Below are positions 14,508-35,424 of a DNA stretch of 52,713 nucleotides, piece by piece. This DNA comes from Rhodospirillales bacterium. GTDB taxonomy: Bacteria > Pseudomonadota > Alphaproteobacteria > Rhodospirillales > CAMCUA01. Position 1 is the stretch's first letter. Each line of letters begins with the position of its first letter. Position numbers and translations under genes: made by a program. The stretch lies in the NCBI GenBank assembly GCA_947470575.1, contig CANITX010000002.1:1-52713 (forward strand). The letters are read 5' to 3'. Under the pieces are notes generated by a model. That model did not search any database, had not been told where the DNA came from, and was given only the letters and a program-made list of their open reading frames with translations.

Positions 14508-15512
14508 CTACGGGCGAAAACGGTCGGTGGCCGAAACCAGTTCGTGGACGATGCCGGGTTCGCTCTGTGCATGACCGGCATCGGGGACCAGCCGGAGGTC
14601 GGCTTCCGGCCAGGCGCGGTAGAGGTCCCAGGCCGACATCGCCGGGGTGACCACGTCGTAGCGACCCTGGACGATGACGCCGGGGATGTGGCGGATGCGC
14701 CCGACGTCGCGCAGCAGTTGATCGTCGGTCTCGAAGAAGCCGCCGTTCATGAAGTAGTGGCATTCGATGCGGGCGAAGGCGATGGCGTAATCGTCGCCGC
14801 CCATCTCTTCGACTCGTCCGGCATCGGGCAACAACGACAGGGTGGCCGCCTCGTATGTGCTCCAGGCCTTCGCCGCCGTCAGGCGCGCGGCCTTATCCGA
14901 TCCGGTCAGGCGTTGGTGATAGGCGGCGATCATGTCGCTGCGCTCGGCCGGCGGAATCGGCGCGACGAACTTCTCCCACAGATCGGGATAGAGTGCGCCG
15001 GTGCCTTGCGATCCATCGCCCTGGGGGCCGCCCTGATAGAACCACTCCAACTCCTTGCGCCGAAGCATGAAGATGCCGCGCAGGATGATTTCGCTACAGC
15101 GGTCGGGATGGGTTTCGGCATAGGCCAGGGCCAGCGTCGATCCCCAGGAGCCGCCCAATACCAACCAGCGTTCGATGCCCAGGTGTTGGCGGATCGTCTC
15201 CATGTCGGCGACCAGATGCCAGGTGGTGTTGTCGGTCAGCGAGGCGTGCGGGGTGCTTTTGCCGCAGCCGCGCTGGTCGAACAGCACGATGCGATAGGCC
15301 TGGGGATCGAACAGCCGGCGCATGTCGGGCTTGGTGCCGCCGCCCGGTCCGCCGTGCAGGAAGATCGCCGGTTTGCCGTTGAGGTTACCGGATTCCTCGA
15401 AATAAATCTCGTGCAGGTCGGACACCTTCAACCGCCCCTCGTTATAGGTGGCGACCGGGGGGTAGAGGGTGCGGCGCGTGCTGTCGTCCATGGCGTAGGA
15501 GCTTCGATCCAT
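14508..15512 (-). CDS. pip: Prolyl aminopeptidase (proline iminopeptidase), alpha/beta hydrolase
   Basis: Track ORF 14508..16472 trimmed to ATG 15512 (MDRSSYAMDDSTRRTLYPPVATYNEGRLKVSDLHEIYFEESGN..GKPAIFLHGGPGGG). The nucleophile motif is GGSWGSTLALAYA. ATG 15491 is an alternative start. Confidence 0.88.
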   Translation of the reverse strand: MDRSSYAMDDSTRRTLYPPVATYNEGRLKVSDLHEIYFEESGNLNGKPAIFLHGGPGGGTKPDMRRLFDPQAYRIVLFDQRGCGKSTPHASLTDNTTWHLVADMETIRQHLGIERWLVLGGSWGSTLALAYAETHPDRCSEIILRGIFMLRRKELEWFYQGGPQGDGSQGTGALYPDLWEKFVAPIPPAERSDMIAAYHQRLTGSDKAARLTAAKAWSTYEAATLSLLPDAGRVEEMGGDDYAIAFARIECHYFMNGGFFETDDQLLRDVGRIRHIPGVIVQGRYDVVTPAMSAWDLYRAWPEADLRLVPDAGHAQSEPGIVHELVSATDRFRP

Positions 15513-15701: not shown

Positions 15702-17258
15702 ATGCCTTTGATAAACAAAGCGCTTTTGGCGTTGGTGACACTGTCGGCCGTCGCCGCCGTCGGGATGATCCCCGCCCAAGCTCAAACCAACCGCAACGTC
15801 ACCATCGTGCTGCCGGACGAGCCGATGGGGCTCGATCCGTGCAACTCCGACACATCGACGCTGGGCCGCATCAACCGGCAGAACGTCACGGAAACACTGA
15901 CCGAGATCGATCCCAAGGACGGCTCGATCAAACCGCGTCTCGCAACATCCTGGGAAAAAATCAACGATACCACGTGGCGCTTCAAGCTGCGCCAGGGCGT
16001 GACCTTTCACGACGGTGCGCCGTTCAATGCCGAGACGGCCGTCACCTCGATCATGCGCACGCTGGCGACCGACTCGGTGGTCAAGGGCGACGTCAAAACC
16101 GGCCTCGATTGCTCGACGCGGACGATTTTCTTCAAGGCCCTGAAGCTCACGCCGAAGGCCGTCGATGCGACGACGCTCGAAATCGTCGCCGACCAGCCGG
16201 TGCCGATCCTGCCGACCCAGATGGGCATCGTCATGCTGGCCTCGCCCAAGTCGCCGATGGACAAGCTGACGCAGGCCCCGGTCGGCACCGGACCCTACGT
16301 CTTCGATCATTGGACGGCGGGCCAGGAAGTCGTGCTCAAGCGCAACGACAAATACTGGGGTGAAAAGCCGCAGGTGGAAGGCGCCAGGTACGTCTGGCGC
16401 AACGAATCCTCGGTGCGGGCCGCCATGGTGAAGATCGGCGAGGCCGACATCGCGCCGGTCATCTCGCCCCAAGACGCCAACGACCCGGCCCTGGATTACA
16501 GCTACCTCAATTCGGAAACCACCTGGCTGCGCATCGACGCGACGCGGCCGCCGCTCGACGACATCCGCGTTCGCCTTGCCATGAACTACGCTGTCGACCG
16601 CAATGCGCTGCGCGGCAGCTTGTTCTCAAAGGATGTCGTTCCGGCGACCCAGATCGTGGTGCCCAGCATCGCCGGGCATAACCACGAGCTCGACAAACGG
16701 GTCTACGCATACGATCCGGCCAAGGCTAAGCAGCTGATCGCCGAAGCCAAGGCAGCCGGTACCCCGGTGGACAAGGAGATCGCGCTGGTCGGTCGCATCA
16801 ACTTCTATCCCAATACCCAGGAAGTGATGGAAGCCATCAACGGCATGTTCCATGCGGTCGGCTTCAACACCAAGTTGAGCATGCTGGAGGTTGCCATCTG
16901 GACCAGCATGATCCGTAAGCCCTTCGACGAAAAGCGCGGGCCGGCCATTCAGAATACGGTGCACGACAACAACAACGGCGATCCGGTGTTCTCGGTCTAT
17001 GCGAAGTTCGGCTGCGAGGGCATCAATTCGACGATGTGCAACCCGGAACTGGACAAGGTCATCACTCAGGCTTCGGTGTCGTCGGGTGCGGAGCGCGTCA
17101 AGGCTTGGGAAAAGGCCTTCCAAATGATCTTCGAGGCGGTGCCCGACGTGATGCTGTTCCATCAGGTCGGCTATTCCCGTGTCGGGTCGCGTCTCGATTT
17201 CAAGCCGACCATCGCCATGAACAGCGAAATCCAGCTTGCGCAGATCAAGTTCAAGTAG
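15702..17258 (+). CDS. ABC-type solute-binding protein, family 5 (peptide/nickel/opine type), paralog 1
   Basis: Track ORF 15666..17258 trimmed to ATG 15702; AGGAGG lies 6 nt upstream. Signal peptide MPLINKALLALVTLSAVAAVGMIPAQAQ. Family-5 pattern ..RLATSWEKI.DTTWRFKLRQGVTFHDG.PFNAE.. plus KRNDKYWGEKP and WRNESSVRAAMVKIGEAD. Confidence 0.88.
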   Translation: MPLINKALLALVTLSAVAAVGMIPAQAQTNRNVTIVLPDEPMGLDPCNSDTSTLGRINRQNVTETLTEIDPKDGSIKPRLATSWEKINDTTWRFKLRQGVTFHDGAPFNAETAVTSIMRTLATDSVVKGDVKTGLDCSTRTIFFKALKLTPKAVDATTLEIVADQPVPILPTQMGIVMLASPKSPMDKLTQAPVGTGPYVFDHWTAGQEVVLKRNDKYWGEKPQVEGARYVWRNESSVRAAMVKIGEADIAPVISPQDANDPALDYSYLNSETTWLRIDATRPPLDDIRVRLAMNYAVDRNALRGSLFSKDVVPATQIVVPSIAGHNHELDKRVYAYDPAKAKQLIAEAKAAGTPVDKEIALVGRINFYPNTQEVMEAINGMFHAVGFNTKLSMLEVAIWTSMIRKPFDEKRGPAIQNTVHDNNNGDPVFSVYAKFGCEGINSTMCNPELDKVITQASVSSGAERVKAWEKAFQMIFEAVPDVMLFHQVGYSRVGSRLDFKPTIAMNSEIQLAQIKFK

Positions 17259-17372
17259 GCCCGGCGCTTTGGAGGCGGTCGGCGGCCGTCTCCAAAGCTG
17301 ACGCCCTGCCAATTTTTGGCTAGGATGGCCGCGAAGGGTCGCCGTTCCGGCCCCCGTTTGGGAGAAAACAAC

Positions 17373-18146
17373 ATGGTTGCCAGGATGTACGAGTTACCCG
17401 CCCGGTCGATGCGCGACCGAGTGAGCCCGGAAGAGTGGGAGGCCCGCGTCGAATTGGCCTGCGCCTATCGCGTGGCGTGGCATTTCGGCTGGTACAGCCA
17501 GATTTTCAACCACATTTCTTACAAGATACCAGGCAGCAACGAAGAATTCCTGCTTAACCCCCTGGGCTTTCTGTATCGCGAAATCACCGCGTCGTCGCTG
17601 GTCAGGATCGACCTGGAGGGCAATACGCTGGACGGCAGCCCGCATGGAGTCATCCAGGCCGGCTGGGTGATCCACAGTGCCATTCACAAGGCGCGCCCCG
17701 ACATCAAGTGCATCATCCATACGCATTCCAAGGACGGCATCGCGGTGAGCGCCCAGAAGTGGGGTCTGCTGCCGGTCAACATGGCGGCGATCATGTTCCA
17801 CAACCGGATTTCCTATCACGACTACGAAGGCCCCTCGATCGAGACCGACGAGCGCGAGCGGCTGGCTGCCAACCTTGGCAAGAACAACGCTCTGGTGTTG
17901 CGCAACCACGGCCTGATCAGCTGCGGCCCCGATATCGGCGATACCATGTGGCTGCACCATCAGCTCGAATCCGCCTGCACGGCCCAAGTTGCAGCGCTGT
18001 CCGGAGGACGTGAGAACCTCCACCTGCCCTCTCCGGAAATGCTGGAGCAGGCCTCGCGGCGCAGCAACCGGCCGCGTACCCACGAAATCAACTGGGCTGC
18101 CCATCGCCGGATGGCCGACGAGCTCTATCCCGGCTACGATCAGTAA
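17373..18146 (+). CDS. Class II aldolase/adducin family protein
   Basis: Track ORF 17316..18146, with ATG 17373 preferred (GGGAGA SD 8 nt upstream). ..RVELACAYRVAWHFGW...IFNHISYKIP..FLLNP.G..Y.EITASSLV..D..G.. and IIHTHS fit the aldolase_II fold. Confidence 0.8.
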   Translation: MVARMYELPARSMRDRVSPEEWEARVELACAYRVAWHFGWYSQIFNHISYKIPGSNEEFLLNPLGFLYREITASSLVRIDLEGNTLDGSPHGVIQAGWVIHSAIHKARPDIKCIIHTHSKDGIAVSAQKWGLLPVNMAAIMFHNRISYHDYEGPSIETDERERLAANLGKNNALVLRNHGLISCGPDIGDTMWLHHQLESACTAQVAALSGGRENLHLPSPEMLEQASRRSNRPRTHEINWAAHRRMADELYPGYDQ

Positions 18147-18170
18147 TCGTCGATCGTAGCGCGATAAAAG

Positions 18171-18208
18171 AAGCCGCCGTACCTGGAAGGGTGCGGCGGC
18201 TTTTCTTT
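18171..18208. terminator. Bidirectional rho-independent terminator between the aldolase and D-2-hydroxyacid dehydrogenase genes
   Basis: 9-bp stem AAGCCGCCG / CGGCGGCTT (18171-18179 and 18194-18202). TTTTCTTT follows on the + strand and CTTTTAT follows on the - strand. Confidence 0.6.
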
Positions 18209-19170
18209 CAGTAGCCGGCGGCGATATCGACGATGTTGCGCAACGTCTTGCCGTTACGCCAGCGGCCGATGTTATCGACGAAGATGTCGACGCCGCGTTG
18301 CGCGGTTTCCAGCGACGTCGGCCCATTGTGCGGTGTGATGATTGTATTGGGGGCCGTCCATAGCGGGCTGGAAGACGGCAGCGGCTCGATGGCGAAATCG
18401 TCGAGTCCGGCACCGGCGATGCGGCCGTCCTTGAGGGCGGTAAGCAGCGCGTCCTCGTCGATGATGTTGCCGCGCGAGACCAGAACGATCATCGCCTTCG
18501 GTTTCATCGCCTTGATTGCCGCCGCATCGATCATGTTGTCGGTTTCCGGCGTGTGCGGCGCGGTGACGACGACGAAGTCGGATTGGCCAAGCAACTTGTA
18601 AAGCTCGCTCCGGTCGAACATCTCGTCGATGTGGGCGACCGGTTCCTTATTGCGCTTAAGGCCGAGGGTACGCATGCCGAACGCCTTGGCGCGCAGCGCG
18701 GTTTCCTTGCCGATATAGCCAAGGCCGATGATGCCGCAGGTCTTGCCGTGCAGCTCTCCGACGATGTGCTTTTCCCATTTGCTCTGGCGCTGTGCCTCGA
18801 GCCACTTGAGCATGTTTCGTTGCAGCATCAGCATCAGCATCATGACGTGTTCGGCCAAGGCGATGGCGCCGTTGCTCTTGGCACAGGTCAGCAGCACGCC
18901 GCTGCTGGCCAGTTCCGGCGAGGCCAGTTCGTCGACCCCGGCGCTCCAGCTGTGGACCCATTTCGGCACCGGCCGGCGCTTGAGGAAGTCCAGATCGTTG
19001 CCATGGCGGCAAGCAACGATGTCGGCCCCTTCGGCGGCGGCGCTCAGTTCGCCGGCTTCGACGAAGCGGCAGGTCAGCGTGCCGGCGGCCTTGCGGATTT
19101 GGTCCTTCTGCGCCTCGGTCAGTTTTTGGGCCGGTGGCGCGACGACGATGTTCGCGGACTTGGTTTCCAT
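18208..19170 (-). CDS. D-isomer-specific 2-hydroxyacid dehydrogenase (NAD-binding) family protein
   Basis: 320-aa ORF with the Rossmann motif GIIGLGYIGKE. It also has ..VVTAPHTPETDNMI.. and ..ITPHNGPTS.. (catalytic His region). It lies 52 nt downstream of enolase paralog 1 on the same strand. Confidence 0.85.
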   Translation of the reverse strand: METKSANIVVAPPAQKLTEAQKDQIRKAAGTLTCRFVEAGELSAAAEGADIVACRHGNDLDFLKRRPVPKWVHSWSAGVDELASPELASSGVLLTCAKSNGAIALAEHVMMLMLMLQRNMLKWLEAQRQSKWEKHIVGELHGKTCGIIGLGYIGKETALRAKAFGMRTLGLKRNKEPVAHIDEMFDRSELYKLLGQSDFVVVTAPHTPETDNMIDAAAIKAMKPKAMIVLVSRGNIIDEDALLTALKDGRIAGAGLDDFAIEPLPSSSPLWTAPNTIITPHNGPTSLETAQRGVDIFVDNIGRWRNGKTLRNIVDIAAGY

Positions 19171-19222
19171 GATCGTTTCCCCGTTTTGGAACTCGCCCGG
19201 GGATTGGCTCCCGAGGCTACGA

Positions 19223-20332
19223 TCAGCTTAACACCGCCACCGTGTGTCGTTTGATCAAATCGTCATCGTAGGTGACACCGAGACCGGGTCCCTCGGGGCA
19301 GTGCATGTGGCCATCGGGCCCGACCTTCAGATCGCCGACGATGCCGAACTGGTGCGCTTCGTTGGGCAGCAGCACCTCGAACATCTCGCTGTTGGGCAGC
19401 GCCATGGTCAGCTGCAGGTTGGCGATGTTGTTGACCGAATTGCCGCCGTGATGAATCTCGTAATTCATGTGGAAGGCGTGGGCGAGGTGGGCGGTCATCA
19501 GGCAGGGCGTGATGCCGCCCTTGACCGCGACATCGCCGCGCAGGGCGTCGGTGGCGTGCGAGGTGATCCACGGCGCGTAGAAGTGGAAGTTGCCGGGCGC
19601 GTATTCGGTGGCCATCACCATGATTTTCAGCTTCTGGCAGAGCTTGACGTAGGTCCAGATGTCGGTGTGCGGCAGCGGGTCTTCGAACCAGTGGAAATTC
19701 ATTTCCGCGATGGCGTCGCCGACCTTCATCGCCTGCGAATAGTCGAGGTGGCCGGCGGCATCGAGCATGAGTAGGAAGTCGGGCCCCACCGCGTCGCGGA
19801 TTTTCTGGTGCATGAGGATGTGCTCGTCGGCGCTGATGCCCAGGGGTGGATGGGTCTTGTAGCCGACGTAGCCGGCCGCCTTCACGGCCAGCGCCTGTTC
19901 GACGTAGGCCTCGGGCGAGGCCAGGGTGGCCGAACTGGCATAGGCCGGGACGCTCGGCTGGCAGGTGCCGATCAGCTTGTGCACGGGCAGGCCGGCAGCC
20001 TTGCCGGCCAGGTCCCATAGCGCCACGTCGATGGCGCCGATGGCACGATACGACGTCGAATTGATGCGGTTGAGCAGCGCTTTCCAGATGATGCCGCGGT
20101 CAAAGGGGTCGCGCCCCAGGATCACCGGCTTCAGCACGTTGATCATCGACCACGCCTCGATCTCGGCGCTGCGGTAGGACGCGCCCAGGTAGCTTTGGCC
20201 GACAACGCCCTCGTCGGTACGAATGGTCACCAGGCCGATCTGGCTGCTGCCGAGAACGGGGTTGTGCGCGCCGTACTGCACGCGGGCGCCGGTCCACTCG
20301 ATCATGGTCATCGTCAAGTCGGTGATCTTCAT
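19223..20332 (-). CDS. Enolase-superfamily enzyme (mandelate racemase/muconate lactonizing family), paralog 1; substrate unknown
   Basis: 369-aa ORF. Putative metal ligands sit at MR-like spacing: MLDAAG (D191), WFEDP (E217), ATEY (E243). RGD (D267) and EIHHGG (H294/295) follow. The N-terminal capping domain includes AIDVALWDLAGKAAGLPV. Confidence 0.85.
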   Translation of the reverse strand: MKITDLTMTMIEWTGARVQYGAHNPVLGSSQIGLVTIRTDEGVVGQSYLGASYRSAEIEAWSMINVLKPVILGRDPFDRGIIWKALLNRINSTSYRAIGAIDVALWDLAGKAAGLPVHKLIGTCQPSVPAYASSATLASPEAYVEQALAVKAAGYVGYKTHPPLGISADEHILMHQKIRDAVGPDFLLMLDAAGHLDYSQAMKVGDAIAEMNFHWFEDPLPHTDIWTYVKLCQKLKIMVMATEYAPGNFHFYAPWITSHATDALRGDVAVKGGITPCLMTAHLAHAFHMNYEIHHGGNSVNNIANLQLTMALPNSEMFEVLLPNEAHQFGIVGDLKVGPDGHMHCPEGPGLGVTYDDDLIKRHTVAVLS

Positions 20333-20390
20333 GGGGGCTCTCCATTTGGGCAGGCACAGGCGTGGCCCGCTGCCGGCCGGCCTAAAATGA

Positions 20391-20420
20391 CTCCGCCGCC
20401 CCTGGGAGGGGGCGACGGAG
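20391..20420 (-). terminator. Hairpin (attenuator/terminator) between SBP paralog 2 and enolase paralog 1
   Basis: On the minus strand: CTCCGTCGCCCC-CTCCCA-GGGGCGGCGGAG, a 12-bp stem with one G:U pair. The following tract (TCATTTTA) is weakly U-rich. Confidence 0.45.
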
Positions 20421-20476
20421 CGTGGTTCTGGTTTCTTGCGCGATACCCGAGCCGGATCGCCCGGCCCGGGCGTCCG

Positions 20477-22030
20477 TCACCTGAACGTGACGGACGCGAT
20501 TTCGAGCGAATTGTTGGTGAGTGGCGTCGGCGTGTAATCGATGCGCGAGCCGACCCGGACGAACCCGACCAGATTGAATTGCGCTATGTCGACGATCTTT
20601 TCCTCATGGGCGATGCGGAACGCCTCTTGGAACTTCTTGGCGCGTTCGGGTCCGGTCGGCAGCTGGGTGGCCTCGGCGATCAGCTTGTCGAGGGCCGGGT
20701 CGCAGACTACTGAGAAGCGGCCGGTGCAGCCCCACTTGCTGTCGGCGGTGAAGACGGCGTCGCCGGTCTGGTTATTGTGCCGGGTTTGGATGATGCTGGG
20801 CCCGCGGTCGTCGGCGAAGGGCTTGCCATGGATCTTGCTCCAGTTGGCTGATTCCAGCATGACGATCTTCATCTTGAAGCCAAGCTGCGTCCACATGGCG
20901 AGCAGGGATTCCATGCTCTCCTGCGAATTTGGATAGAGATTGCCGCGACCGTAGAGTGTGATCTCCTTGTCGACGGGGGCGCCTGCGGCCTTGGCCTCGG
21001 CGAACAGCTGCTTGGCCTTGGCCAAGTCGTAGGGCCAGGGCTTCAGGTTGGGGTTGTGCCCGGCGATGCCCGGCATCACCAAGTTGGCGGTAGGCAGCGA
21101 TTCCTTGGGGAAGACCGTGCCACGCAGCGACTCGCGATCCACGGCGAGGTTCAAGGCGAGGCGCAGCCGCTTGTCGTCGAGCGGCGGGATCATTGCATCC
21201 ATGCGCAGGAAGGCGGTTTCGGCGTTGGGATAGCTGATGTCGCGGAATCCCGTGCCGTTCTTGTCGACATCCTGGGCAGCGATGTTGTCGGTAAGGTCTG
21301 CTTCGCCGATCTTGATCATGGCGGCGCGCACCGAGGATTCGTTGCGCCAAACGAAGCGGACGGACTCGGCCTGCGGCTTGGGGCCCCAGTACTTGTCGTT
21401 GCGCTTCATCAGTATTTCTTGGCCGGGTGTGTATTTCTCGAACGCGTAGGCGCCGGTCCCGACGGCCGTCTGGGCAAGCTTGTCCATGGGTGTGTTGGGC
21501 GAAACCAACATAACCCAGGTCATGAAGGTCGGCAGGATCGGTTCTGGAATTTCCGTGACGATGTCGATCGTGGAGGCATCGACCGCCTTGGCCGTGGCGT
21601 TCACCTTGCCGAAATATTCGAGGCGGGAATGGCAATCCAGCTTGGTGGCGACAATGCGGTTGACCGCCTTGGCCGCGTTCTCGGCGTTGAGCGGTTCGCC
21701 ATCGTGGAAGGTGACGCCCGGACGCAGCTTAAACCGCCAGGTGGTGGGGTTCGTCTGCTCCCACGACAGCGCCAAGCGGGGGATGAGGGTGCCGGTCTTG
21801 TAATCGATCTGGGTCAAGCCCTCGACGGCATTGTTGAAAATCACGCGGCCGTTGTTCGATTTGGTATTGCCGCAGCCGTCCAGATTGTCGGGCTCCTCGC
21901 TGAGCACCACGGTTACCGACTTGCTCTTGTCTTGAGCCTGGGCGGTACCTGCCATCAGCATCGGGGCAGCCAACAGGGCCGCTGTAACTATCGAAAGGCT
22001 TCCTCGCATTAGATCGAAAGTGCGTAGCAT
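20477..22030 (-). CDS. ABC-type solute-binding protein, family 5, paralog 2
   Basis: Track ORF 20477..22144 trimmed to ATG 22030; AGGAGG lies 6 nt upstream. Signal peptide MLRTFDLMRGSLSIVTAALLAAPMLMAGTAQAQ. It shares ..RLALSWEQTNPTTWRFKLRPGVTFHDG.., KRNDKYWGPKP and WRNESSVRAAMIKIGEAD with the other paralogs. Confidence 0.88.
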   Translation of the reverse strand: MLRTFDLMRGSLSIVTAALLAAPMLMAGTAQAQDKSKSVTVVLSEEPDNLDGCGNTKSNNGRVIFNNAVEGLTQIDYKTGTLIPRLALSWEQTNPTTWRFKLRPGVTFHDGEPLNAENAAKAVNRIVATKLDCHSRLEYFGKVNATAKAVDASTIDIVTEIPEPILPTFMTWVMLVSPNTPMDKLAQTAVGTGAYAFEKYTPGQEILMKRNDKYWGPKPQAESVRFVWRNESSVRAAMIKIGEADLTDNIAAQDVDKNGTGFRDISYPNAETAFLRMDAMIPPLDDKRLRLALNLAVDRESLRGTVFPKESLPTANLVMPGIAGHNPNLKPWPYDLAKAKQLFAEAKAAGAPVDKEITLYGRGNLYPNSQESMESLLAMWTQLGFKMKIVMLESANWSKIHGKPFADDRGPSIIQTRHNNQTGDAVFTADSKWGCTGRFSVVCDPALDKLIAEATQLPTGPERAKKFQEAFRIAHEEKIVDIAQFNLVGFVRVGSRIDYTPTPLTNNSLEIASVTFR

Positions 22031-22174
22031 CTCGTTCCTCCTGCTCCCGTGATCGCCTCGCCGCAGATGCGCGGCCGTTCCTGTTGCGGATGAAGTGCGG
22101 GTTTCTTGCCCATCCGCTTTTCCAGCCTGCACTGGGCAGGCCAAGCTTCTTGGCAGATACCGTCGACCTTGTTA

Positions 22175-22203
22175 TTCATACGATGACTCGATCTTTGAGT
22201 GAC
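22175..22203 (-). promoter_or_regulatory. Candidate sigma-70-type promoter for SBP paralog 2 (GTCACT-N17-TATGAA)
   Basis: Minus strand: GTCACT (22203-22198), a 17-nt spacer, then TATGAA (22180-22175). The layout matches the elements upstream of SBP3 and SBP4. It lies in the intergenic region shared with the divergent GntR gene. Confidence 0.35.
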
Positions 22204-22284
22204 CGATTGATTGAGTCAATGGGCATTCACATCTGTATTTCGGCCTGACGATCTAGGATTAGGGCCGCTTCCATAGGAATTTAC

Positions 22285-23007
22285 ATGCCGTTCGAACCGA
22301 TCCAATCGCCGCGAATCTATCAACAGGTCGCGGCCCGCATGGCCCAAATGATCGCCGGCGGGGAATTGAAGTCGGGCGAACGCTTGCCGAACGAGCTTGA
22401 GCTGGCGCGCCGCTTCGCCGTCAGCCGCGGTGCCATCCGGGAAGCGATGATCGCGCTGGAGACCGGCGGCATGATCGAAGTCCGCCATGGTAACGGCGCC
22501 TATGTGCGCGAGGATTCGGCCCATGGCACGGATATCGACTGGAGCCGTGGGGCCATCGCCGACCCCGGGCCGCTCGAACAGTTCGAGATGCGCGAACTCC
22601 TCGAGCCCGAAGCCGCGGCGCGCGCCGCGCTCAGGATCACCGATGAGCGGATCGACGGACTCGAAGCGATGTTGGGCCGTATGAAGGCGAGAGTCGGGGA
22701 TACCGGCAGCCAGCGCGACGGACGCACCTTCATGGAGCGGATCGCCGCGGCCTCGGGAAATTCCATCCTGCAGTCGATGATCGAGGAATTGTGGCGGCTG
22801 CGCGACGGGCGCATGTGGACGACGCTGCGCATGCGCATGCTGGGGCCCGATCAGCGCGCCGCCGCCATCGTCCATCGCGAGGTTATTATCGCTGCGCTGC
22901 GCAGCCGCGATCCCGCAGCTGCCCGTCGGGCAACCCAGGGTTATCTTGTCCTGACCAAGCGCATCTACTTCGGCGACTTGGCCGGAGCGGTGGACGGCGG
23001 CGGCTGA
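22285..23007 (+). CDS. GntR-family transcriptional regulator, FadR subfamily (FCD ligand domain)
   Basis: 240-aa ORF. The winged-helix part reads ..YQQVAARMAQMIAGGELKSGERLPNELELARRFAVSRGAIREAMIALETGGMIEVRHGNGAYV. The C-terminal helical part resembles an FCD domain (..FEMRELLEPEAAARAA..). Confidence 0.88.
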   Translation: MPFEPIQSPRIYQQVAARMAQMIAGGELKSGERLPNELELARRFAVSRGAIREAMIALETGGMIEVRHGNGAYVREDSAHGTDIDWSRGAIADPGPLEQFEMRELLEPEAAARAALRITDERIDGLEAMLGRMKARVGDTGSQRDGRTFMERIAAASGNSILQSMIEELWRLRDGRMWTTLRMRMLGPDQRAAAIVHREVIIAALRSRDPAAARRATQGYLVLTKRIYFGDLAGAVDGGG

Positions 23008-23015
23008 GCCTCCTC

Positions 23016-24128
23016 CTAGCGCAATACGGCGACGGTCTTGCGCTTGATGAGGTCGTGATCAAGCTCGACGCCAAGGCCCGGTCCTTCGGGGCAGCGCATC
23101 AGACCGTCGGTGCCGACCACCAGGTCGTTGACGACGCCGTACTGCTGGGCCTCGGCCGGCAGTAGAACCTCGAACATCGAACAGTTGGGTATCGCCATCG
23201 CCAGATGTAGGTTGGCGATGTTGTTGATCGAATTGCCGCCGTGATGGATTTCGTAGTTCATGCAGAAGGCATGGGCCAGGTGCGCCGTCATCAAGCAGGG
23301 CGTGATGCCGCCCTTGACCGCGACGTCGCCGCGCAAGGCATCGGTTGCATGCAGGGTGATCCACGGCGCGTAGGAACGCAGGCTGCCCGGCGCGTATTCG
23401 GTAGCCATCACCGGTATTTCGAGTTTCTGGCAAAGCTTGACGTAGGTCCACACGTCCTCGGCCGGCAGCGGATCTTCGAACCACAGGAAATCGAGCTCCT
23501 TGAGGGCTTCGCCCAACTTGAGCGCGCGGGCATAGTCGAGATGGCCGGAAGCGTCGAGCATGAGGATGAATTCGGGTCCGACCGCCTCGCGGATCTTGCG
23601 ATGCAGGTCGATGATGCGGTCGATGGAAACGCCGAGCGGCGGATGAGTCTTGTAACCGACGTAGCCGGCCGCCTTCACCGCCAGGCTTTCCTCGATATAG
23701 GCATCGAAGGAACTCATGGTGGCCGAACTGGCGTAGGCCGGCACGGTGGGGCGACAGGTGCCGATCAATTGGTGTACAGGCAGGCCAGCGGCCTTGCCGG
23801 CCAGGTCCCATAGGGCCACGTCGATGGCGCCGATCGCCCGATAGGTCGTCGAACGGATGCGCGACATCAGCAGCTCGTTGATGGCGCCGCGATCGAACGG
23901 GTTGCGCCCCATGATGGCGGGCTTGAGCAGTTTGATCAGGGACCAGGCGTCGATCTCGGCGCTGCGGAAAGAGGCGCCGAGAAAGCTCTGCCCCGTCACT
24001 CCTTCGTCGGTGGCGATGGTGAGCAGGCCGATTTGGCTGCCGTCGACGATGGGGTTGTGGGCGCCGTATTGGACCCGCGCGGCATCGTCCCAGTCGAACA
24101 TGGTCAGCGTGACATCGGTGATTTTCAT
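23016..24128 (-). CDS. Enolase-superfamily enzyme (MR/MLE family), paralog 2; substrate unknown
   Basis: 370-aa ORF, colinear with and clearly similar to 19223..20332 along its whole length. It has the same GYKTHPP, MLDASG, WFEDP, ATEY, RGD and EIHHGG positions. Confidence 0.85.
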   Translation of the reverse strand: MKITDVTLTMFDWDDAARVQYGAHNPIVDGSQIGLLTIATDEGVTGQSFLGASFRSAEIDAWSLIKLLKPAIMGRNPFDRGAINELLMSRIRSTTYRAIGAIDVALWDLAGKAAGLPVHQLIGTCRPTVPAYASSATMSSFDAYIEESLAVKAAGYVGYKTHPPLGVSIDRIIDLHRKIREAVGPEFILMLDASGHLDYARALKLGEALKELDFLWFEDPLPAEDVWTYVKLCQKLEIPVMATEYAPGSLRSYAPWITLHATDALRGDVAVKGGITPCLMTAHLAHAFCMNYEIHHGGNSINNIANLHLAMAIPNCSMFEVLLPAEAQQYGVVNDLVVGTDGLMRCPEGPGLGVELDHDLIKRKTVAVLR

Positions 24129-24163
24129 GAGGAATTCCTCGAGAAAGGACGTTTCAGGGCATC

Positions 24164-24200
24164 ATAACAAAACCGCCCCGGCAACGGTATGCCGGGGCGG
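24164..24200 (-). terminator. Rho-independent terminator directly after SBP paralog 3, upstream of enolase paralog 2
   Basis: Minus strand: CCGCCCCGGC-ATACCGTT-GCCGGGGCGG, a 10-bp GC stem, followed by TTTTGTTATG. Confidence 0.7.
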
Positions 24201-24244
24201 GGTATTTAGTTACCTACAGAGGGCTGGAGAGAACCCCCATCTTC

Positions 24245-25786
24245 TCAATTGAAGGTGATTCTTTCGACGCCGATTTCGCTGTTGAGCGAGAGGTTCGGCT
24301 TGAAGTTGATCCGTGGATTTACGCGGGTATAGCCGACCATGTGGAAGAGATACACGTCGGGGATCTTTTCTTCGTAAACGATACGATAGATATCCTCATA
24401 CGCCTTGACGCGAGCCGGACCTATAAGGGTCGCCGCCTCGGCGATCTTGGCATCGAGAGCGGGATCGCAGATGGTGCTCTGCACGCCCTTGCAGGCATAA
24501 CGGGCTTCCACGGTGAACACAGAGTCGCCGTTGTTGTTGTCGTGCTGGCCTTGCAGCAGGACGGGGCCGCGTTCGTCCTTGAAGGGCTTGTTCAGGATGT
24601 CGAGCCACTCGGCGCGGTCCAGCATCTTGAGCTTCACCTTGAAGCCGGCAGCTTTATACATCTCCATCAGCGCTTCCATGGTTTCCGTGCCGTTCGGCCA
24701 AATTCCGGTACGCCCGACCATCTCGAGTTCCTTGTTAAGGTCGGCGCCTTCGGCCTTGGCTTCGGCCACGAGCTGCTTGGCCTTGGCGAGATCGAAGGGG
24801 ATGGGCTTTTTATCCAATTCGTGATTGTGCCCAAGGATGAAAGGCAACACCACCTGGGCCGCGGGGATGACGTCTTTCGACAGGATGGAACCTCGCAGGG
24901 CGTTGCGGTCGGTGGCGTATTGCAGCGCCTGGCGCACCTTGAAGTTGTTGAGGGGTGGGATCATGGTATCGATACGCAGGAAAGAAGTTTCGGAATTCAG
25001 GAAGCTGAAGTCCGTCTTCGGATCGTTGGCATCCTGCACGGCGATGTTATCGGTCAGGTCGGCCTCGCCCACCTTGACCATGGCGGCACGCACTGCCGAT
25101 TCCTTACGCCAGACGAACTTGACCGCCGTGGCTTCGGGCTTCTTGCCCCAATAGCTTTCGTTGCGCTTGAGCGTGATTTCGATGCCGTTGGTCCACTTCT
25201 CCAACACATAGGGACCGGTGCCAATGGCCGTGCGTTGCAAGCCATTGATCGACGTGTCGGGATGGACCAACGTATAGACACCCATGCGGGTCGGCAGGAT
25301 CGGATCCTTGACGCTCGAGGTGATGTCCAGCGTCAGCGGATCGACAGCCTTGCCGGTCAGCTTCTGCGCACCGAAGAACTTGGTGCGCACGCCGCAGACC
25401 GGCGTGATGGATTCGACCAGGGTACGGGCAATGGCCCCGGAGGCGGTCGTCGCATTGAACGGCGTGCCGTCATGGAAGGTGACGTTCGGGCGCAGCTTGA
25501 AGCGCCAGGTAAAATCGTCGATCCGTTCCCACGAGGTCGCCAGACGCGGCGTGACCGCACCGGTGTCGGGATCGACCACGGTCAGGGTTTCGGCAATGGT
25601 TTGTTTGACGACGCGCCCGACGGTCGATTGGCTGGTATTGCAGCCGTCGAGATCGGTGGGTTCGTCGGTCAGGACGATGGTGAGATTCCTGTTCTGGGCC
25701 TGAGCCTGAGCCTGCGATAACGGCATCAAAGCCAATACGGCGGCAGCCGTTACAGCTCCCAGTGCAAACACGGGGTAACGCGGCAT
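24245..25786 (-). CDS. ABC-type solute-binding protein, family 5, paralog 3
   Basis: Track ORF 24245..25804 (TTG) trimmed to ATG 25786; AGGAGG lies 7 nt upstream. Signal peptide MPRYPVFALGAVTAAAVLALMPLSQAQAQA. It has the family-5 pattern and subfamily motifs (KRNESYWGKKP, WRKESAVRAAMVKVGEAD). Confidence 0.88.
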   Translation of the reverse strand: MPRYPVFALGAVTAAAVLALMPLSQAQAQAQNRNLTIVLTDEPTDLDGCNTSQSTVGRVVKQTIAETLTVVDPDTGAVTPRLATSWERIDDFTWRFKLRPNVTFHDGTPFNATTASGAIARTLVESITPVCGVRTKFFGAQKLTGKAVDPLTLDITSSVKDPILPTRMGVYTLVHPDTSINGLQRTAIGTGPYVLEKWTNGIEITLKRNESYWGKKPEATAVKFVWRKESAVRAAMVKVGEADLTDNIAVQDANDPKTDFSFLNSETSFLRIDTMIPPLNNFKVRQALQYATDRNALRGSILSKDVIPAAQVVLPFILGHNHELDKKPIPFDLAKAKQLVAEAKAEGADLNKELEMVGRTGIWPNGTETMEALMEMYKAAGFKVKLKMLDRAEWLDILNKPFKDERGPVLLQGQHDNNNGDSVFTVEARYACKGVQSTICDPALDAKIAEAATLIGPARVKAYEDIYRIVYEEKIPDVYLFHMVGYTRVNPRINFKPNLSLNSEIGVERITFN

Positions 25787-25969
25787 CTGATTTCCTCCTG
25801 GCAAGTGATCTTCTTCGTCGCGAGCGATTCACGCGGTGGACGCCGGGGACGGTGGGTCGAACGATAAGTTATTCCCTTGGTGCCGAAATCTTGCCGACAA
25901 CCCTTAGCCTTCCCCGCCGGCTGAACGTTGCCAGCCGATTTTTTTGCGTCAGACGCGTTTTCGCCGGTT
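25787..25969 (-). promoter_or_regulatory. Conserved ~180-nt 5' leader of SBP paralog 3 (homologous to 27921-28106)
   Basis: It aligns block by block with the SBP4 leader on the minus strand. Both have an A-run followed by a hairpin, GGGGA...UCCCC complementary pentamers, and a highly conserved 3' block GTCCCCGGCGTCC.CCGCGT..CGACGAAG..TGC.AGGAG. An in-frame TGA 10 codons upstream of TTG 25804 shows this region is not coding. Confidence 0.45.
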
Positions 25970-25998
25970 ACGATACATCGACCTGCGAGGTAAGTCAC
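25970..25998 (-). promoter_or_regulatory. Candidate promoter for SBP paralog 3 (GTGACT-N17-TATCGT)
   Basis: Minus strand: GTGACT (25998-25993), a 17-nt spacer, then TATCGT (25975-25970). The hexamers and spacing are identical to those upstream of SBP4. Confidence 0.4.
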
Positions 25999-26154
25999 TC
26001 TGGGAACCAACATGGGGAACAAGATACGGCGTAGGCTTACCTTCGGTGGTACAAGGTATGCGGCGATGGTCCCGGGCATTCGGGAAGCGAGCCCCGGCGC
26101 CAGGCCGCAGGCTGCCTCGCGTCGCTAATGGCAGCGTTGGTAGGGCGAACCCGG

Positions 26155-26268
26155 TCAAATCGGCTGTTCGCCCTGGCTGCCGTCGACGATGGGATTGTGG
26201 GTGCCGTATTGGACCCGTGCGGCATCGTCCCAATCGAACATGGTCAATATGACATCGGATATCTTCAT
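26155..26268 (-). pseudogene. Truncated remnant (37 codons) of a third enolase-superfamily paralog
   Basis: The minus strand reads MKISDVILTMFDWDDAARVQYGTHNPIVDGSQ GEQPI*. The first 32 residues match the paralog-2 N-terminus (MKITDVTLTMFDWDDAARVQYGAHNPIVDGSQ) at 29 of 32 positions. The DNA at ~26176-26268 visibly aligns with 24036-24128. Homology stops abruptly near 26176. Confidence 0.8.
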
Positions 26269-26302
26269 CGGGGGCTCTCCCTTGGACCTGTGGCGGTCGT
26301 CT

Positions 26303-26338
26303 CAAACAAAACCGCCCCGGCGTGATGCGCCGGGGCGG
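26303..26338 (-). terminator. Rho-independent terminator directly after SBP paralog 4
   Basis: Minus strand: CCGCCCCGGCG-CATCA-CGCCGGGGCGG, an 11-bp GC stem, followed by TTTTGTTTG. The stem is near-identical to the 24164-24200 terminator. Confidence 0.7.
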
Positions 26339-26381
26339 GGTATCCAAACTTCCATAAGGGGCCGGATGGCCCCCGGCCTGC

Positions 26382-27920
26382 TTACTTGAAGCTGATGCGG
26401 GCCAACGGGATCATGGCGTTCAGCGACGGATTCGGCTTGAAGACGATCCGCGGGTTGACGCGGGTGTAGCCGATCATGTGGTACAGGAGGACGTCGGCGA
26501 TGATGTCGTCGTGAATCCGGCGGAACACCTCTTCGTATAACTTGTAGCGTTCCGGGGCCGGGGTCGCGGCGGCTTTGTCGGCCAGCTCCTCCAGGTCCTT
26601 GTCGCAGGTGAAGCTCTGCGAGCCTTCGCACTTGTAACGGGTCGGCACGGAGAACACCGCGTCGCCGAAGTTATTGTCGTGCTGGCCCTGCAGCAGGGTC
26701 GGTCCACGGTTCTCGTCGTGGGGCCGGTTCAGGAGTTCGAGCCACGGCGCGCGGTCGTACATCACGAGCTTCACGTTCAAGCCAGCCGCCTTCAGCATCT
26801 GCTGGACCGCTTCCATCATTTCCGTGGCGTTCTGCCAAATGTTGACGCGGCCCTGTATCTCGATCTCCTTGGAGATGTCGACGCCGGCGGCCTTGGCTTC
26901 GGCCAGCAGCTGCTTCGCCTTCGCGAGGTCGAACTTGTAGGGCCGCTTGTCGAGCTCGTGGTTGTGGCCCGGGATAGTAGGGATGATGACCTGCGTCGCG
27001 AGCAAGGCGTCCTTGGACACGAGCCCCTTGAGCGCCTCGCGATCGATGGCATAGGTGATGGCGAGCCGCACCCGCTTGTCGTCCAACGGCTTACGGGTCG
27101 AGTCAATCCGCAGGAACGACGTCTCCGTGTTCAGGTAGCTGTGGTCGAGGGTCGGGTCGAGGGCGTCCTGCACGGCGATATTGTCGGTCAAGTCGGCCTC
27201 GCCGATCTTCACCATGGCGGCCCGCACCGCAGACTCCTTACGCCAGACATACTTGGCGCCGGCGACCTCGGGCTTCTTGCCCCAGTAGTCCTCGTTGCGC
27301 ACCACGTTGATTTCCAATCCTGGCACCCAGTTAACGAACTTGTAGGGACCGGTGCCGACGGCCGTGCGGGTAAGGCTGGCCTCCGACGCACCCGGCGCCT
27401 GCAGGGTCATCTGTGAGAGGCGGATGGGCAGGATCGGCTCGGGCTTCTCGGTGTAAATCTCGAGCGTGTAATCGTCCGGCGTCTTGAAGGTGAACTTGTC
27501 CAGGCCGAAGAATTTCGTGCGGTTGCCGCAGGCCGGGCTGACGGCGGGGTTCTGGTTGCGTTGGATGGTCTTCACGATCCCCTGGGCGGTAAACGGCTGC
27601 CCGTCGTGGTACTTGACGCCATTGCGCAGGTGGAAGCGCCAGCCTTTAGAATCAGGGGTAATCTGCTCCCATGACGTCGCCAGCAGCGGGGTGAGTTGCC
27701 CGGTGTCCGGATCCATCATAGTCAGGGTCTCGTAGAAGTTCTGCAACGCCACCCGGCCCACCGTCGACTGGCTCGTATCGCAACCGTCCACATCCGTCGG
27801 CTCGTCGGTGAGCACGATGGTTACATTCTTGTTCTGGGCTTGGGCCTGTGACAACGGCATCAGCGCCAATACGGCGGCGGCCGTCGCGGCTCCCAATGCA
27901 TACACGGGGTATCGCAACAT
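26382..27920 (-). CDS. ABC-type solute-binding protein, family 5, paralog 4
   Basis: Track ORF 26382..28064 trimmed to ATG 27920 (AGGAGC SD). Signal peptide MLRYPVYALGAATAAAVLALMPLSQAQA, nearly the same as paralog 3. Subfamily motifs RNEDYWGKKP and WRKESAVRAAMVKIGEAD are present. Confidence 0.88.
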   Translation of the reverse strand: MLRYPVYALGAATAAAVLALMPLSQAQAQNKNVTIVLTDEPTDVDGCDTSQSTVGRVALQNFYETLTMMDPDTGQLTPLLATSWEQITPDSKGWRFHLRNGVKYHDGQPFTAQGIVKTIQRNQNPAVSPACGNRTKFFGLDKFTFKTPDDYTLEIYTEKPEPILPIRLSQMTLQAPGASEASLTRTAVGTGPYKFVNWVPGLEINVVRNEDYWGKKPEVAGAKYVWRKESAVRAAMVKIGEADLTDNIAVQDALDPTLDHSYLNTETSFLRIDSTRKPLDDKRVRLAITYAIDREALKGLVSKDALLATQVIIPTIPGHNHELDKRPYKFDLAKAKQLLAEAKAAGVDISKEIEIQGRVNIWQNATEMMEAVQQMLKAAGLNVKLVMYDRAPWLELLNRPHDENRGPTLLQGQHDNNFGDAVFSVPTRYKCEGSQSFTCDKDLEELADKAAATPAPERYKLYEEVFRRIHDDIIADVLLYHMIGYTRVNPRIVFKPNPSLNAMIPLARISFK

Positions 27921-28106
27921 CTGATCTGCTCCTAGCAATTGACCTGCTTCGTCGTGAACCGTTGACGCGGCGGACGCCGGGGACCGATTGAAAGAACGAC
28001 GGATTTCGGTTGTTGCCGAATTAAAGGTATCGGCAGCCTTTGCTCTCCCCTTCGGCCGGAACATTGCCGGCCGATATTTTATGCGTTGAACGCCTTATCG
28101 CTGAGC
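27921..28106 (-). promoter_or_regulatory. Conserved ~180-nt 5' leader of SBP paralog 4 (homologous to 25787-25969)
   Basis: See 25787-25969. The hairpin here is CGGCCGG-CAAUGUU-CCGGCCG, against CGGCUG-GCAACGUU-CAGCCG in the other copy, which is a compensated base pair. Confidence 0.45.
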
Positions 28107-28135
28107 ACGATACTTGTACTGACTGCGTAAGTCAC
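28107..28135 (-). promoter_or_regulatory. Candidate promoter for SBP paralog 4 (GTGACT-N17-TATCGT)
   Basis: Minus strand: GTGACT (28135-28130), a 17-nt spacer, then TATCGT (28112-28107). Confidence 0.4.
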
Positions 28136-28212
28136 TCCGTGAACTGTCACGGGGGCCTTCGTTTCCAATGCCAGCGAGGGAAGAATTTAAGCGTGGTAGC
28201 GATATTCGGGTC

Positions 28213-28350
28213 TTAAGACTTTTTCTTGAAAAGACCCATTGGCGCAGACTTGCCTTTGGTCGGGGTAATAAACGTGGCTGCTAGGGCAACCGGCTTGGCC
28301 TTCTTCGGCTTTTTTAATTCTCGATTGCTGCGCTTTTGGCTTTTGGCCAT
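28213..28350 (-). CDS. Small lysine-rich protein (45 aa), not in ORF track
   Basis: Minus strand: GAGGAGG, then 6 nt, then an ATG at 28350 and a TAA stop at 28215-28213. Product is MAKSQKRSNRELKKPKKAKPVALAATFITPTKGKSAPMGLFKKKS. It lies 95 nt downstream of cspA on the same strand, and was too short for the track's apparent length cutoff (shortest listed ORF is 60 aa). Confidence 0.55.
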   Translation of the reverse strand: MAKSQKRSNRELKKPKKAKPVALAATFITPTKGKSAPMGLFKKKS

Positions 28351-28445
28351 GGTGGCCTCCTCGGCGCCAAACCGGCGCTGGGTTGACGGGATACATCGGG
28401 GTTGGCGGCCGAAGCCGGCAGGCCTCGGGCCTGCCGGTGAGTCGA

Positions 28446-28658
28446 TCAGTCGGCCAGCTTGAGGTTGTCAGCCGACATCTTGCCGCTCTTCTGGTCGGAG
28501 ACCAGTTCGTAACCCAGCTTCTGTCCTTCGCGCAGGTCGTCAAGACCGGCACGCTCCACAGCGCTGATGTGGACGAACGCGTCCTTGCCGCCATCATCGG
28601 GGGCAATAAAGCCGAAGCCCTTTTGGGCGTTAAACCACTTCACGGTTCCCGTCGTCAT
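28446..28658 (-). CDS. cspA: Cold-shock protein, CspA family (CSD)
   Basis: 70-aa ORF reading [34 protein letters not shown].., containing the RNP1 (KGFGFI) and RNP2 (VFVHI-like) motifs. Confidence 0.95.
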
Positions 28659-29027
28659 GGGAACTCCTTTCTCGAATATGAGTTTTGCTTGCCCGCGAAT
28701 ATGCAGGCCGTCGAATTCGCGTTTTCAGGCAAGAAGATTGTAAGCTCGGCGCCAAAATTATTTGCGCAAGGCCAAGTCGTCTGGCCGTCTATCGACCGGA
28801 TGAAGATGGCGGTATTACAATGACAATACAAGGCGTATTCAGGACGACCATTAAATATACATAGATCGGCGGCCCAGAATATATTGGGGTGCAGATATTT
28901 TTTTATCCAAAGATTGTCGGGCTCTAATGGCGTCTGCCGGTATTCCGGATGCCGTACGCAGCGCCAGGCCGAACTTCCTCTGTGGAGGGTCGTCGTCGGT
29001 GCGCAGGGATGGGGAGCTGCGGTTCGA

Positions 29028-29864: not shown

Positions 29865-29898
29865 CGTCGTTCCTCCCGCGTCGATCCTGCCAGCGCAA

Positions 29899-35415: not shown

Positions 35416-35424
35416 GGCCGGCGG

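Follow-up and report, generated by a model that had tools for sequence, protein, structure and literature searches.

Many Bug/TctC solute-binding protein (SBP) genes of Betaproteobacteria lack adjacent membrane components and are scattered beside catabolic genes. In Pseudomonas aeruginosa, the carnitine operon caiX-cdhCAB-hocS begins with an orphan SBP gene, caiX, whose product works with CbcWV, a core transporter encoded elsewhere (PMC5806209), and the five paralogs DppA1-A5 share a single DppBCDF (PMC4206461, PMC12728205). Here we describe a cluster of comparable layout in a Rhodospirillales bacterium (assembly GCA_947470575.1, contig CANITX010000002.1, positions 1 to 52,713 of the forward strand; these 52,713 nucleotides are referred to as the window). 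The cluster spans 14.5-28.1 kb and holds four family-5 SBP genes (SBP1-SBP4), two enolase-superfamily genes (ENO1 and ENO2), the scar of a further ENO, a class II aldolase-fold gene (ALD), a D-2-hydroxyacid dehydrogenase gene (DH), a GntR/FCD regulator gene and a prolyl aminopeptidase gene (PIP). The window has a G+C content of about 63% and is matched nearly letter for letter by freshwater lake metagenome assemblies. We consider it probable, with moderate confidence, that these are orphan SBPs serving a Dpp-type ATP-binding cassette (ABC) importer encoded elsewhere, each heading a small catabolic unit.

As in the Cbc/CaiX system, an SBP gene comes first in a catabolic unit without permease or ATPase, a local regulator is divergently encoded, and one translocator presumably serves several SBPs of the same subfamily. 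However, the SBPs of that system are of the class F betaine type and ours are of family 5 (cluster C), the enzymes differ, and the shared transporter demonstrated there is one that we infer here. Like DppA1-A5, which have distinct specificities and one Dpp-type translocator, the window has several family-5 SBP paralogs; the ligands of DppA1-A5 are di- and tripeptides, whereas every SBP of the window has an enolase-superfamily or aldolase-like gene as its partner. To our knowledge, no paired catabolic enzymes exist for the P. aeruginosa dppA genes. The Bug/TctC expansions also place orphan SBPs by catabolic genes, and TctC/Bug-like SBPs are the commonest neighbours of the ENO family elsewhere, but their transporter is tripartite tricarboxylate rather than ABC and their SBP fold differs. 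Overall, the layout is best read as the familiar one of orphan SBPs of a shared transporter and not as a transporter-less novelty, with the novelty lying in the enzyme and the ligand. The units without membrane components are SBP2-ENO1-DH, SBP3-ENO2 and SBP1-ALD, and the features of the cluster are as follows:

14508-15491, minus strand: PIP, prolyl aminopeptidase (S33 alpha/beta hydrolase), divergent from SBP1; NCBIfam TIGR01249
15702-17258, plus strand: SBP1, family-5 SBP with Sec signal, heading the SBP1-ALD pair; Pfam SBP_bac_5, E 3e-67
17373-18146, plus strand: ALD, class II aldolase/adducin fold, PRK07044 subfamily; Pfam Aldolase_II, E 1e-45, and NCBIfam NF005451
18169-18204, no strand assigned: hairpin between the convergent ALD and DH, stem of 16 pairs
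18208-19170, minus strand: DH, D-isomer-specific 2-hydroxyacid dehydrogenase, final gene of SBP2-ENO1-DH; Pfam 2-Hacid_dh_C, E 9e-56
19223-20332, minus strand: ENO1, enolase superfamily, mandelate-racemase subgroup; Pfam MR_MLE_N and MR_MLE_C
20333-20476, minus strand: SBP2-ENO1 spacer with two strong hairpins, from folding
20477-22030, minus strand: SBP2, family-5 SBP, divergent from the GntR gene; Pfam SBP_bac_5, E 1e-65
22285-23007, plus strand: GntR/FCD (FadR-type) regulator; Pfam GntR and FCD, E 2e-18 and 1e-21
23016-24128, minus strand: ENO2, paralog of ENO1; Pfam MR_MLE_N and MR_MLE_C
24173-24200, minus strand: terminator-like hairpin after SBP3, 11 pairs, then UUUUGUU
24245-25786, minus strand: SBP3, sister of SBP4; Pfam SBP_bac_5
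25787-26060, minus strand: SBP3 upstream region/leader, a copy of the SBP4 leader; nhmmer E 1e-76
26155-26268, minus strand: ENO2-like remnant of 32 homologous codons, 5 unrelated codons and a stop; tblastn, direct repeat
26312-26338, minus strand: terminator-like hairpin after SBP4, 11 G-C pairs, then UUUUGUUU
26382-27920, minus strand: SBP4, family-5 SBP; Pfam SBP_bac_5, E 3e-70
27921-28205, minus strand: SBP4 upstream region/leader with GTGACT-N17-TATCGT, then a hairpin at 28052-28074; alignment

An initial annotation of this DNA, made from its letters and open reading frames, had proposed a catabolic island for a small ligand without cognate membrane components near the SBPs, and both ideas are supported. 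Its families and their places were all confirmed by Pfam (SBP_bac_5, MR_MLE_N/C, Aldolase_II, 2-Hacid_dh_C, GntR plus FCD). The four SBPs are intact, with SBP_bac_5 matches of 205-238 bits (E 1e-60 to 1e-70), and the translations begin with the hydrophobic N-terminal Sec signals that it had described, ending in AQA/QAQA. Capping and barrel domains are present in both ENO1 and ENO2 (Pfam MR_MLE_N and MR_MLE_C, E 1e-14 to 1e-45), and the proline iminopeptidase that it had placed divergent from SBP1 passes the TIGR01249 equivalog (438 bits, cut-off 260).

Neither Pfam nor tblastn with the permeases and ATPases of homologous operons found a Dpp/Opp-type permease or ATPase in the window or in a further 10 kb to its right, read on a 154,872-base scaffold of the same organism (about 62 kb in total). 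The earlier statement that the window holds no permease or ATPase for the SBPs therefore stands for the Dpp/Opp type, with the correction that one ABC ATPase (plus strand, ~47.6-48.4 kb) and an FtsX/MacB-type permease (plus strand, 48358-50997) do exist. Together with a GDSL lipase on the minus strand, these form the only ABC system of the window (~47030-50997), which we read as a tesA/ybbA/ybbP-like exporter-type arrangement and not as an SBP-dependent importer. Importer genes were also not found in the syntenic relatives L007, L008/L012 and L092 (L001-L179 are numbered homologous stretches). Complete operons occur at greater distance: in L001-L003 and L179, genes for a permease, a permease/ATPase fusion and an ATPase come straight after an SBP-ENO pair, the ENO being 64-69% identical to ours and the SBP 47% identical to SBP2, and in L093-L098 and L105 operons of the SBP-dppBCDF type begin with an SBP1-like gene. 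Since homologous SBPs sit in full operons, the SBPs of the window would belong to SBP-dependent importers of the Dpp type. The initial annotation had asked whether homologous loci always carry a complete ABC operon; these operons exist but are not universal, and the lineage of the window conserves the orphan state. In other lineages too (L100, L101, L102), orphan SBPs of the subfamily stand next to enzymes.

SBPs that signal via chemoreceptors or kinases are known in other families, and the SBPs of the window could likewise be periplasmic ligand sensors docking to a chemoreceptor, a sensor kinase or another membrane protein. The lack of importer genes in about 62 kb and in four relatives would suit such a role. 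However, genes for chemoreceptors or kinases are absent from the cluster in the window and in L007 and L008, the hybrid kinase near the L092 cluster lies outside its SBP1-ALD unit, and homologs including the same SBP-ENO pair sit in standard importer operons. A cytoplasmic enzyme paired with each SBP is also sensible only if the ligand enters the cell, and we regard a sensory function as quite improbable.

The close relatives are metagenome contigs and one species-representative metagenome-assembled genome (MAG), the lake MAG L012 (GTDB representative CAMCUA010000008.1), which is the closest species-level genome. They share flanks with the window: RlmN, IalB, DUF2817 and tRNA-Ala on one side, and PIP, nitroreductase, Usp and Lon on the other. 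L008 and L012 have the order SBP4 ortholog, GntR, SBP2 ortholog, ENO1 ortholog, DH, ALD, PIP, and L007 the order SBP4, ENO2, SBP2, ENO1, patatin, DH, ALD, PIP; the patatin-like gene (L007 4760-5839, between ENO1 and DH) occurs in this relative only. L092 has PIP and then SBP1-ALD, while in L178 an SBP2-like gene, two ENO genes, DH and a prolyl aminopeptidase gene follow one another on one strand. The orphan state is thus conserved in the lineage of the window and the copy number of SBP and ENO varies, with two SBPs and one ENO in L008/L012, at least two SBPs and two ENOs in L007, and four SBPs and two ENOs plus the scar in the window. This agrees with the earlier idea of SBP numbers varying around a conserved enzyme core.

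Orthologs of ENO1 are 97% (L008) and 91% (L007) identical, with dN/dS of ~0.08-0.11, and an ENO2 ortholog of 94% lies directly after the SBP4 ortholog in L007. SBP1 has an ortholog of 89-90% identity with the same neighbours in L092, SBP2 has orthologs of 91-92% in L007 and L008, and SBP4 has orthologs of 86-88% in L007, L008 and L012 (dN/dS ~0.32); no SBP3 ortholog above 61% identity was found elsewhere, and SBP3 is so far unique to the window. Overall, comparisons of orthologs give dN/dS values of 0.06-0.11 (ENO) and 0.11-0.32 (SBP1, SBP2 and SBP4), at dS 0.19-0.55. Genes with orthologs are under purifying selection, which points to working genes. Additionally, five lake metatranscriptomes hold contigs mostly 90-99% alike to the window. 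Those of X11 cover SBP4 almost fully together with ~130 nt of its leader, so that RNA reaches at least 28049, and others cover parts of SBP3 (X11 and X21), SBP2 and SBP1, as well as ALD (X23 and X28) and PIP.

These data bear on the idea that the cluster is a decaying leftover of former complete ABC operons, with the membrane genes lost and the SBPs on their way out. The reduction of one ENO copy to a scar of 32 codons, the copy number differences among close relatives and the full operons of more distant relatives would all fit decay. However, the four SBP genes and the two ENO genes are all intact and their orthologs evolve under the constraint given above, the orphan arrangement recurs in at least four related genomes, and SBP transcripts are present in several lake metatranscriptomes. 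Decay is very improbable, being largely refuted already by the selection and expression data.

The initial annotation had treated the four SBPs as one locally expanded subfamily and as each other's closest paralogs. The motifs and cysteines that it listed are present, along with an additional invariant cysteine (C137 in SBP1 numbering), but they do not mark a local expansion, being common to all 125 subfamily members examined. The subfamily is large: of the candidates scored in a profile search, 2,028 proteins reach E <= 1e-40. Pairwise identity among the four SBPs is 44-60%. Many proteins of other bacteria match SBP1 at 57-66% identity, against only 50-54% for SBP2-4. Neighbour joining makes SBP3 and SBP4 the only sisters, and the smallest clade that holds all four SBPs takes in 124 of the 126 sequences of the tree; SBP1 is nested inside a widespread clade and SBP2 lies in a small clade of its own with the SBP sequences P0125 and P0234. 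Synonymous divergence between the paralogs is near saturation (dS 0.9-1.07). A single local expansion is ruled out by the identities, the tree and dS, and the SBPs represent three old lineages, namely SBP1, SBP2 and SBP3 plus SBP4.

The remnant of a third enolase gene claimed for this DNA proved to be a 32-codon ENO2-like scar, whose core (26173-26268, minus strand) is 91% identical in protein and 89% in DNA to ENO2 residues 1-32 by tblastn. It belongs to a direct repeat (24034-24128 and 26174-26268, 89% identical). The SBP-ENO cassette is repeated at a spacing of ~3.77-3.79 kb (SBP2-ENO1 against SBP3-ENO2) and of 2.13-2.14 kb (SBP3 against SBP4; 2134-2140 nt). The younger repeat takes in the first 95 nt of ENO, which explains the remnant, as well as the leader and the terminator hairpin. 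A clean tandem duplication of SBP4 into SBP3 is only partly tenable, with a dS of ~0.96 between the SBP bodies against 89% DNA identity in the scar, and with 112 nt of unique sequence at the joint. Since the scar is 89% identical but the SBP3 and SBP4 bodies have a dS near 1, the flanks would be younger than the SBP bodies, or homogenised relative to them. L007, with its SBP4 ortholog directly before an intact ENO2 ortholog, shows the arrangement without SBP3.

ENO1 and ENO2 are 75% identical. In an alignment of 25 sequences, K160-T-H162, D192, E218, E244, D268, H295 (ENO2 numbering) and an H-H pair are invariant. The metal ligands D192, E218 and E244 lie in the motifs LMLD, WxEDP and ATE and are assigned by motif rather than from a solved structure, and D268 stands five residues ahead of the strand-6 GG. 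The phmmer alignment of ENO1 to mandelate racemase (MR) stops at ENO1 residue 294, opposite MR 297. We take K164-T-K166 of MR to be the counterpart of the K-T-H site, D270 that of D268, and H297 that of H295. ENO therefore shares with MR and the acid-sugar dehydratases, for example L-talarate/galactarate dehydratase, the fold, the metal ligands and the His-Asp dyad, but has K-T-H where MR has K-T-K; in place of the K-x-K strand-2 motif of the MR subgroup there is a K-x-H variant, which 1RVK has too at the aligned place. These residues place ENO in the MR subgroup, with one lysine of its apparatus replaced by histidine. The strand-6 lysine of dipeptide epimerases and the muconate-lactonizing enzyme (MLE) subgroup is not present in ENO, which has an aspartate in that place.

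A known isofunctional family for ENO was rejected: NCBIfam equivalogs stay far below their cut-offs and relatives in the Protein Data Bank (PDB) are distant. The acid-sugar dehydratase equivalogs (TalrD/GalrD, GalD, ManD, RhamD, AraD, gluconate/galactonate) give at best 87-119 bits against cut-offs of 311-750, the highest for the ENO paralogs being the TalrD/GalrD model (115-119 bits, cut-off 500), and the L-Ala-D/L-Glu epimerase model gives 27 bits with ENO1 against a cut-off of 343. The best solved relative, 1RVK/4HCD from Agrobacterium tumefaciens, is distant (E 2e-43, 152 bits) and lacks the aspartate at the dyad position, and the other PDB relatives, all distant, are mostly structural genomics entries. 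The initial annotation had considered that the enolase paralogs might fall in an isofunctional cluster with a known substrate; no curated model was reached. Our literature search found nothing relevant on the PDB relatives or on pairings of enolase-superfamily genes with SBPs, and no characterised member of the ENO family. The family is nonetheless widespread, with matches in at least 584 stretches of species-representative genomes from many phyla, and keeps ~55% identity between Proteobacteria and Rokubacteria; one of the matches comes from a MAG labelled Nitrosotalea. Its cultured carriers include Stella vacuolata ATCC 43931, Ancylobacter mangrovi and Caldovatus sediminis. Source annotations are generic: 'L-alanine-DL-glutamate epimerase-like' and 'mandelate racemase' for ENO, and 'peptide/nickel transport system substrate-binding protein' for the SBPs.

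The neighbourhoods of these genes offer clues to the ligand. The initial annotation had suggested examining whether the enolase paralogs keep company with SBP_bac_5 genes, and such a neighbourhood is conserved only in a subclade of at least 64% identity. Among 77 loci whose ENO is 53-58% identical, Dpp-type genes lie within ~1 kb of ENO only in L018 and L045, L063 has a distant SBP-like match ~8 kb away, and the neighbourhoods are otherwise diverse. The commonest neighbours, identified from their sequences rather than by family search, are TctC/Bug-like SBPs (14), family III CoA-transferases (8) and a second enolase-superfamily gene (7). These neighbourhoods point to an externally acquired carboxylate whose uptake system would have been swapped between lineages. 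Similarly, the SBP subfamily elsewhere neighbours HpcH/HpaI aldolase, Asp/Glu-racemase-like, CMD, CoA-transferase, aconitase-like, Iso_dh, RraA-like and TauD genes, a hint of enzymes of hydroxy- and oxo-dicarboxylate metabolism. In L102 (1-2303), two tandem subfamily SBPs adjoin genes resembling the large and small subunits of aconitase, and in L106 (2323-5099) another enolase-superfamily gene (392 aa) is immediately upstream of an SBP2-like gene, with a LysR regulator. A scan of metagenomes with the SBP profile returned mostly generic family-5 SBPs at 26-32% identity and nine useful loci. Substrates of the MR subgroup are carboxylates with an abstractable alpha proton, and the ligand is probably a small carboxylate.

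The binding sites of the SBPs were compared with DppA, in which Asp408 and Arg355 hold the dipeptide termini and Asp408 binds the amino group of the peptide. None of the SBPs reaches the NCBIfam DppA equivalog (69-111 bits against a cut-off of 1005). In a profile alignment with Escherichia coli DppA, the Asp408 equivalent is aspartate in SBP1, SBP3 and SBP4, and 119 of 125 subfamily members keep it; it is asparagine in the SBP2 clade and glycine in the SBP of L001. An invariant arginine of the SBPs sits one position from Arg355. These residues are relevant to peptide salvage, in which the SBPs would bind di- or tripeptides containing proline or D-amino acids for a general Dpp, ENO would epimerise them, PIP cleave them, and DH and ALD treat the resulting acid. 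Peptides are the classical ligands of family-5 SBPs, DppA ranks among the best relatives with a solved structure, and the positions matching Asp408 and Arg355 are kept in SBP1, SBP3, SBP4 and most of the subfamily. A true prolyl aminopeptidase also adjoins the cluster in all close relatives and is co-directional with SBP-ENO-ENO-DH in L178, and enolase-superfamily dipeptide epimerases reportedly sit with dpp genes. However, ENO has the MR arrangement, with an aspartate five residues before the strand-6 GG and a histidine, and without the strand-6 lysine, and it barely registers with the L-Ala-D/L-Glu epimerase model, at the 27 bits noted above for ENO1. The Asp408 equivalent has been lost from SBP2 and from the L001 SBP, the SBPs that stand before ENO1 and before its nearest homolog in a full operon, and the recurrent neighbours of the subfamily elsewhere are organic-acid enzymes and not peptidases. 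Because of the adjacent prolyl aminopeptidase, a peptide-type ligand stays a rival, but peptide salvage is unlikely. A small polar carboxylate, possibly amino-bearing or opine-like, would be favoured over ordinary peptides.

The remaining genes of the cluster say less about the chemistry. ALD scores 295 bits with NCBIfam NF005451 (cut-off 207), DH reaches no NCBIfam equivalog, and the models nearest to the GntR/FCD regulator, namely NanR, UxuR and ExuR, are all under their cut-offs. DH follows ENO in L008-L011 and L178, and in L008 a GntR/FCD gene also lies between two SBP genes. PIP adjoins ALD in L007, L008 and L092, and in L178 it lies immediately behind DH in the same orientation. The counterparts of DH in L007 (6059-7021) and L008 (8978-9940) share only 76% identity with it, against 91-97% for the flanking ENO1 and ALD, which suggests allelic replacement or recombination at DH.

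Regulation of the units may involve their hairpins and leaders. G+C-rich hairpins follow all four SBP genes, in line with the strong hairpins reported initially. The stems behind SBP3 and SBP4 are terminator-like, with U tracts, and nearly identical to each other, and the post-SBP3 spacer folds with a z of -4.2. The SBP2-ENO1 spacer (148 nt, 20333-20480) folds at -77.5 kcal/mol (z -2.6), and a 64-nt stretch with the ALD-DH hairpin, likely a two-way terminator, at -32.8 kcal/mol (z -4.9). The pattern of transcripts is consistent with attenuation at the post-SBP hairpins. The promoter-like elements that had been assigned to three of the SBP genes were not borne out by a sigma-70 consensus scan (3 found against 4.1 expected from shuffles), and only SBP3 and SBP4 carry a conserved upstream GTGACT-N16/17-TATCGT. 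This element belongs to a leader of ~270 nt that also has several invariant blocks and, after an A-run, a hairpin. Its copies in the window (25787-26060 and 27921-28205, minus strand), L008 (3296-3569) and L012 (5480-5753) have a mean column identity of 77% over the four sequences, above that of the coding regions; the covariation analysis had effectively three sequences. The leader was not found upstream of other subfamily SBPs and had no match in Rfam, and a known riboswitch was rejected on the latter result. It could be a promoter with a cis-regulatory 5' untranslated region. A GntR operator shared by all four SBP upstream regions was likewise dropped as a candidate.

With orphan SBPs of a shared Dpp-type importer as the favoured reading, the cluster would work as follows. 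Each SBP would be exported by Sec, capture one member of a family of related small carboxylates and hand it to shared DppBCDF-like membrane and ATPase components. In the cytoplasm, ENO would abstract the proton next to the ligand carboxylate and then either eliminate a beta-hydroxyl group, a dehydration yielding a 2-oxo acid, or invert the centre by racemisation. The product would be processed by DH, ALD and perhaps the prolyl aminopeptidase. The GntR/FCD protein may control the divergent SBP2-ENO1-DH unit, and the post-SBP hairpins could hold SBP transcripts far above those of the enzymes.

Several points weigh against this picture. No partner transporter is seen in the ~62 kb of genome read, and an operator common to the four SBP upstream regions was looked for and none was found. 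The pathway is drawn from folds only, because ENO, DH and ALD reach no specific functional model. Transcripts of ENO1, ENO2 and DH were not detected among the metatranscriptome contigs, although contigs cannot show absence, and many of the matching contigs, at the identities given, come from related strains; none covered the regulator. The Asp408-equivalent aspartate of SBP1, SBP3 and SBP4 would suit a ligand with an amino group more than a sugar acid, and we know of no family-5 SBP with a plain organic acid as ligand.

Outside the cluster, ~10.8 kb (~28206-38940) between the SBP4 leader and tRNA-Ala(CGC) looks like a strain-specific islet at a tRNA gene; L008 and L012 lack it and their tRNA abuts the leader. 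It encodes a Lys-rich open reading frame (ORF), a cold-shock protein, TauD, an RraA-like protein, a 1197-aa 2-oxoacid:ferredoxin oxidoreductase-like protein (POR, TPP_enzyme_C, DUF6537), APH, an NHL-repeat protein, a cupin-like ORF and an acyl-CoA dehydrogenase. Homologs of TauD (29028-29864) and of the RraA-like protein (29899-30630) recur near subfamily SBPs in unrelated contigs: the surroundings of the L093 operon include a TauD of 62% identity, TauD also flanks the L095-L097 operon and the L100 orphan SBP, and an RraA-like gene follows the L105 operon. The two may belong to the metabolism of the same ligand, although the window copies lie in the islet that is absent from L008/L012. The Lys-rich ORF (28213-28350, minus strand) has 45 aa and the CspA-type cold-shock protein (28446-28658, minus strand) 70 aa. 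Metatranscriptome depth peaks over the csp gene, in short pieces that run into unlike sequence and are probably from csp genes of other organisms. On the other side of the cluster, the LonC/LonB-like protease (10064-12961) is 965 aa from its first start and 835 aa as called in L008, reflecting either an internal true start or an N-terminal extension.

A wider possibility, which we hold tentatively, is that the ENO family and the SBP subfamily mark an undescribed and widespread route for the uptake and breakdown of small carboxylates that is transcribed in lake bacteria, with hydroxy- and amino-polycarboxylates and opine-like compounds as candidates. If true, ENO would be a new isofunctional family within its superfamily and the SBPs a non-peptide branch of the 'peptide/nickel' family. 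The value of the locus lies in function discovery and not in a new principle. It offers matched pairs of SBP and enzyme (SBP2-ENO1, SBP3-ENO2, and SBP4 with the ENO2 ortholog in L007), and the ligand of a single SBP would directly nominate the substrate of an uncharacterised ENO family. It would also reveal whether a branch of the peptide/opine/nickel SBPs has moved to another class of ligand.

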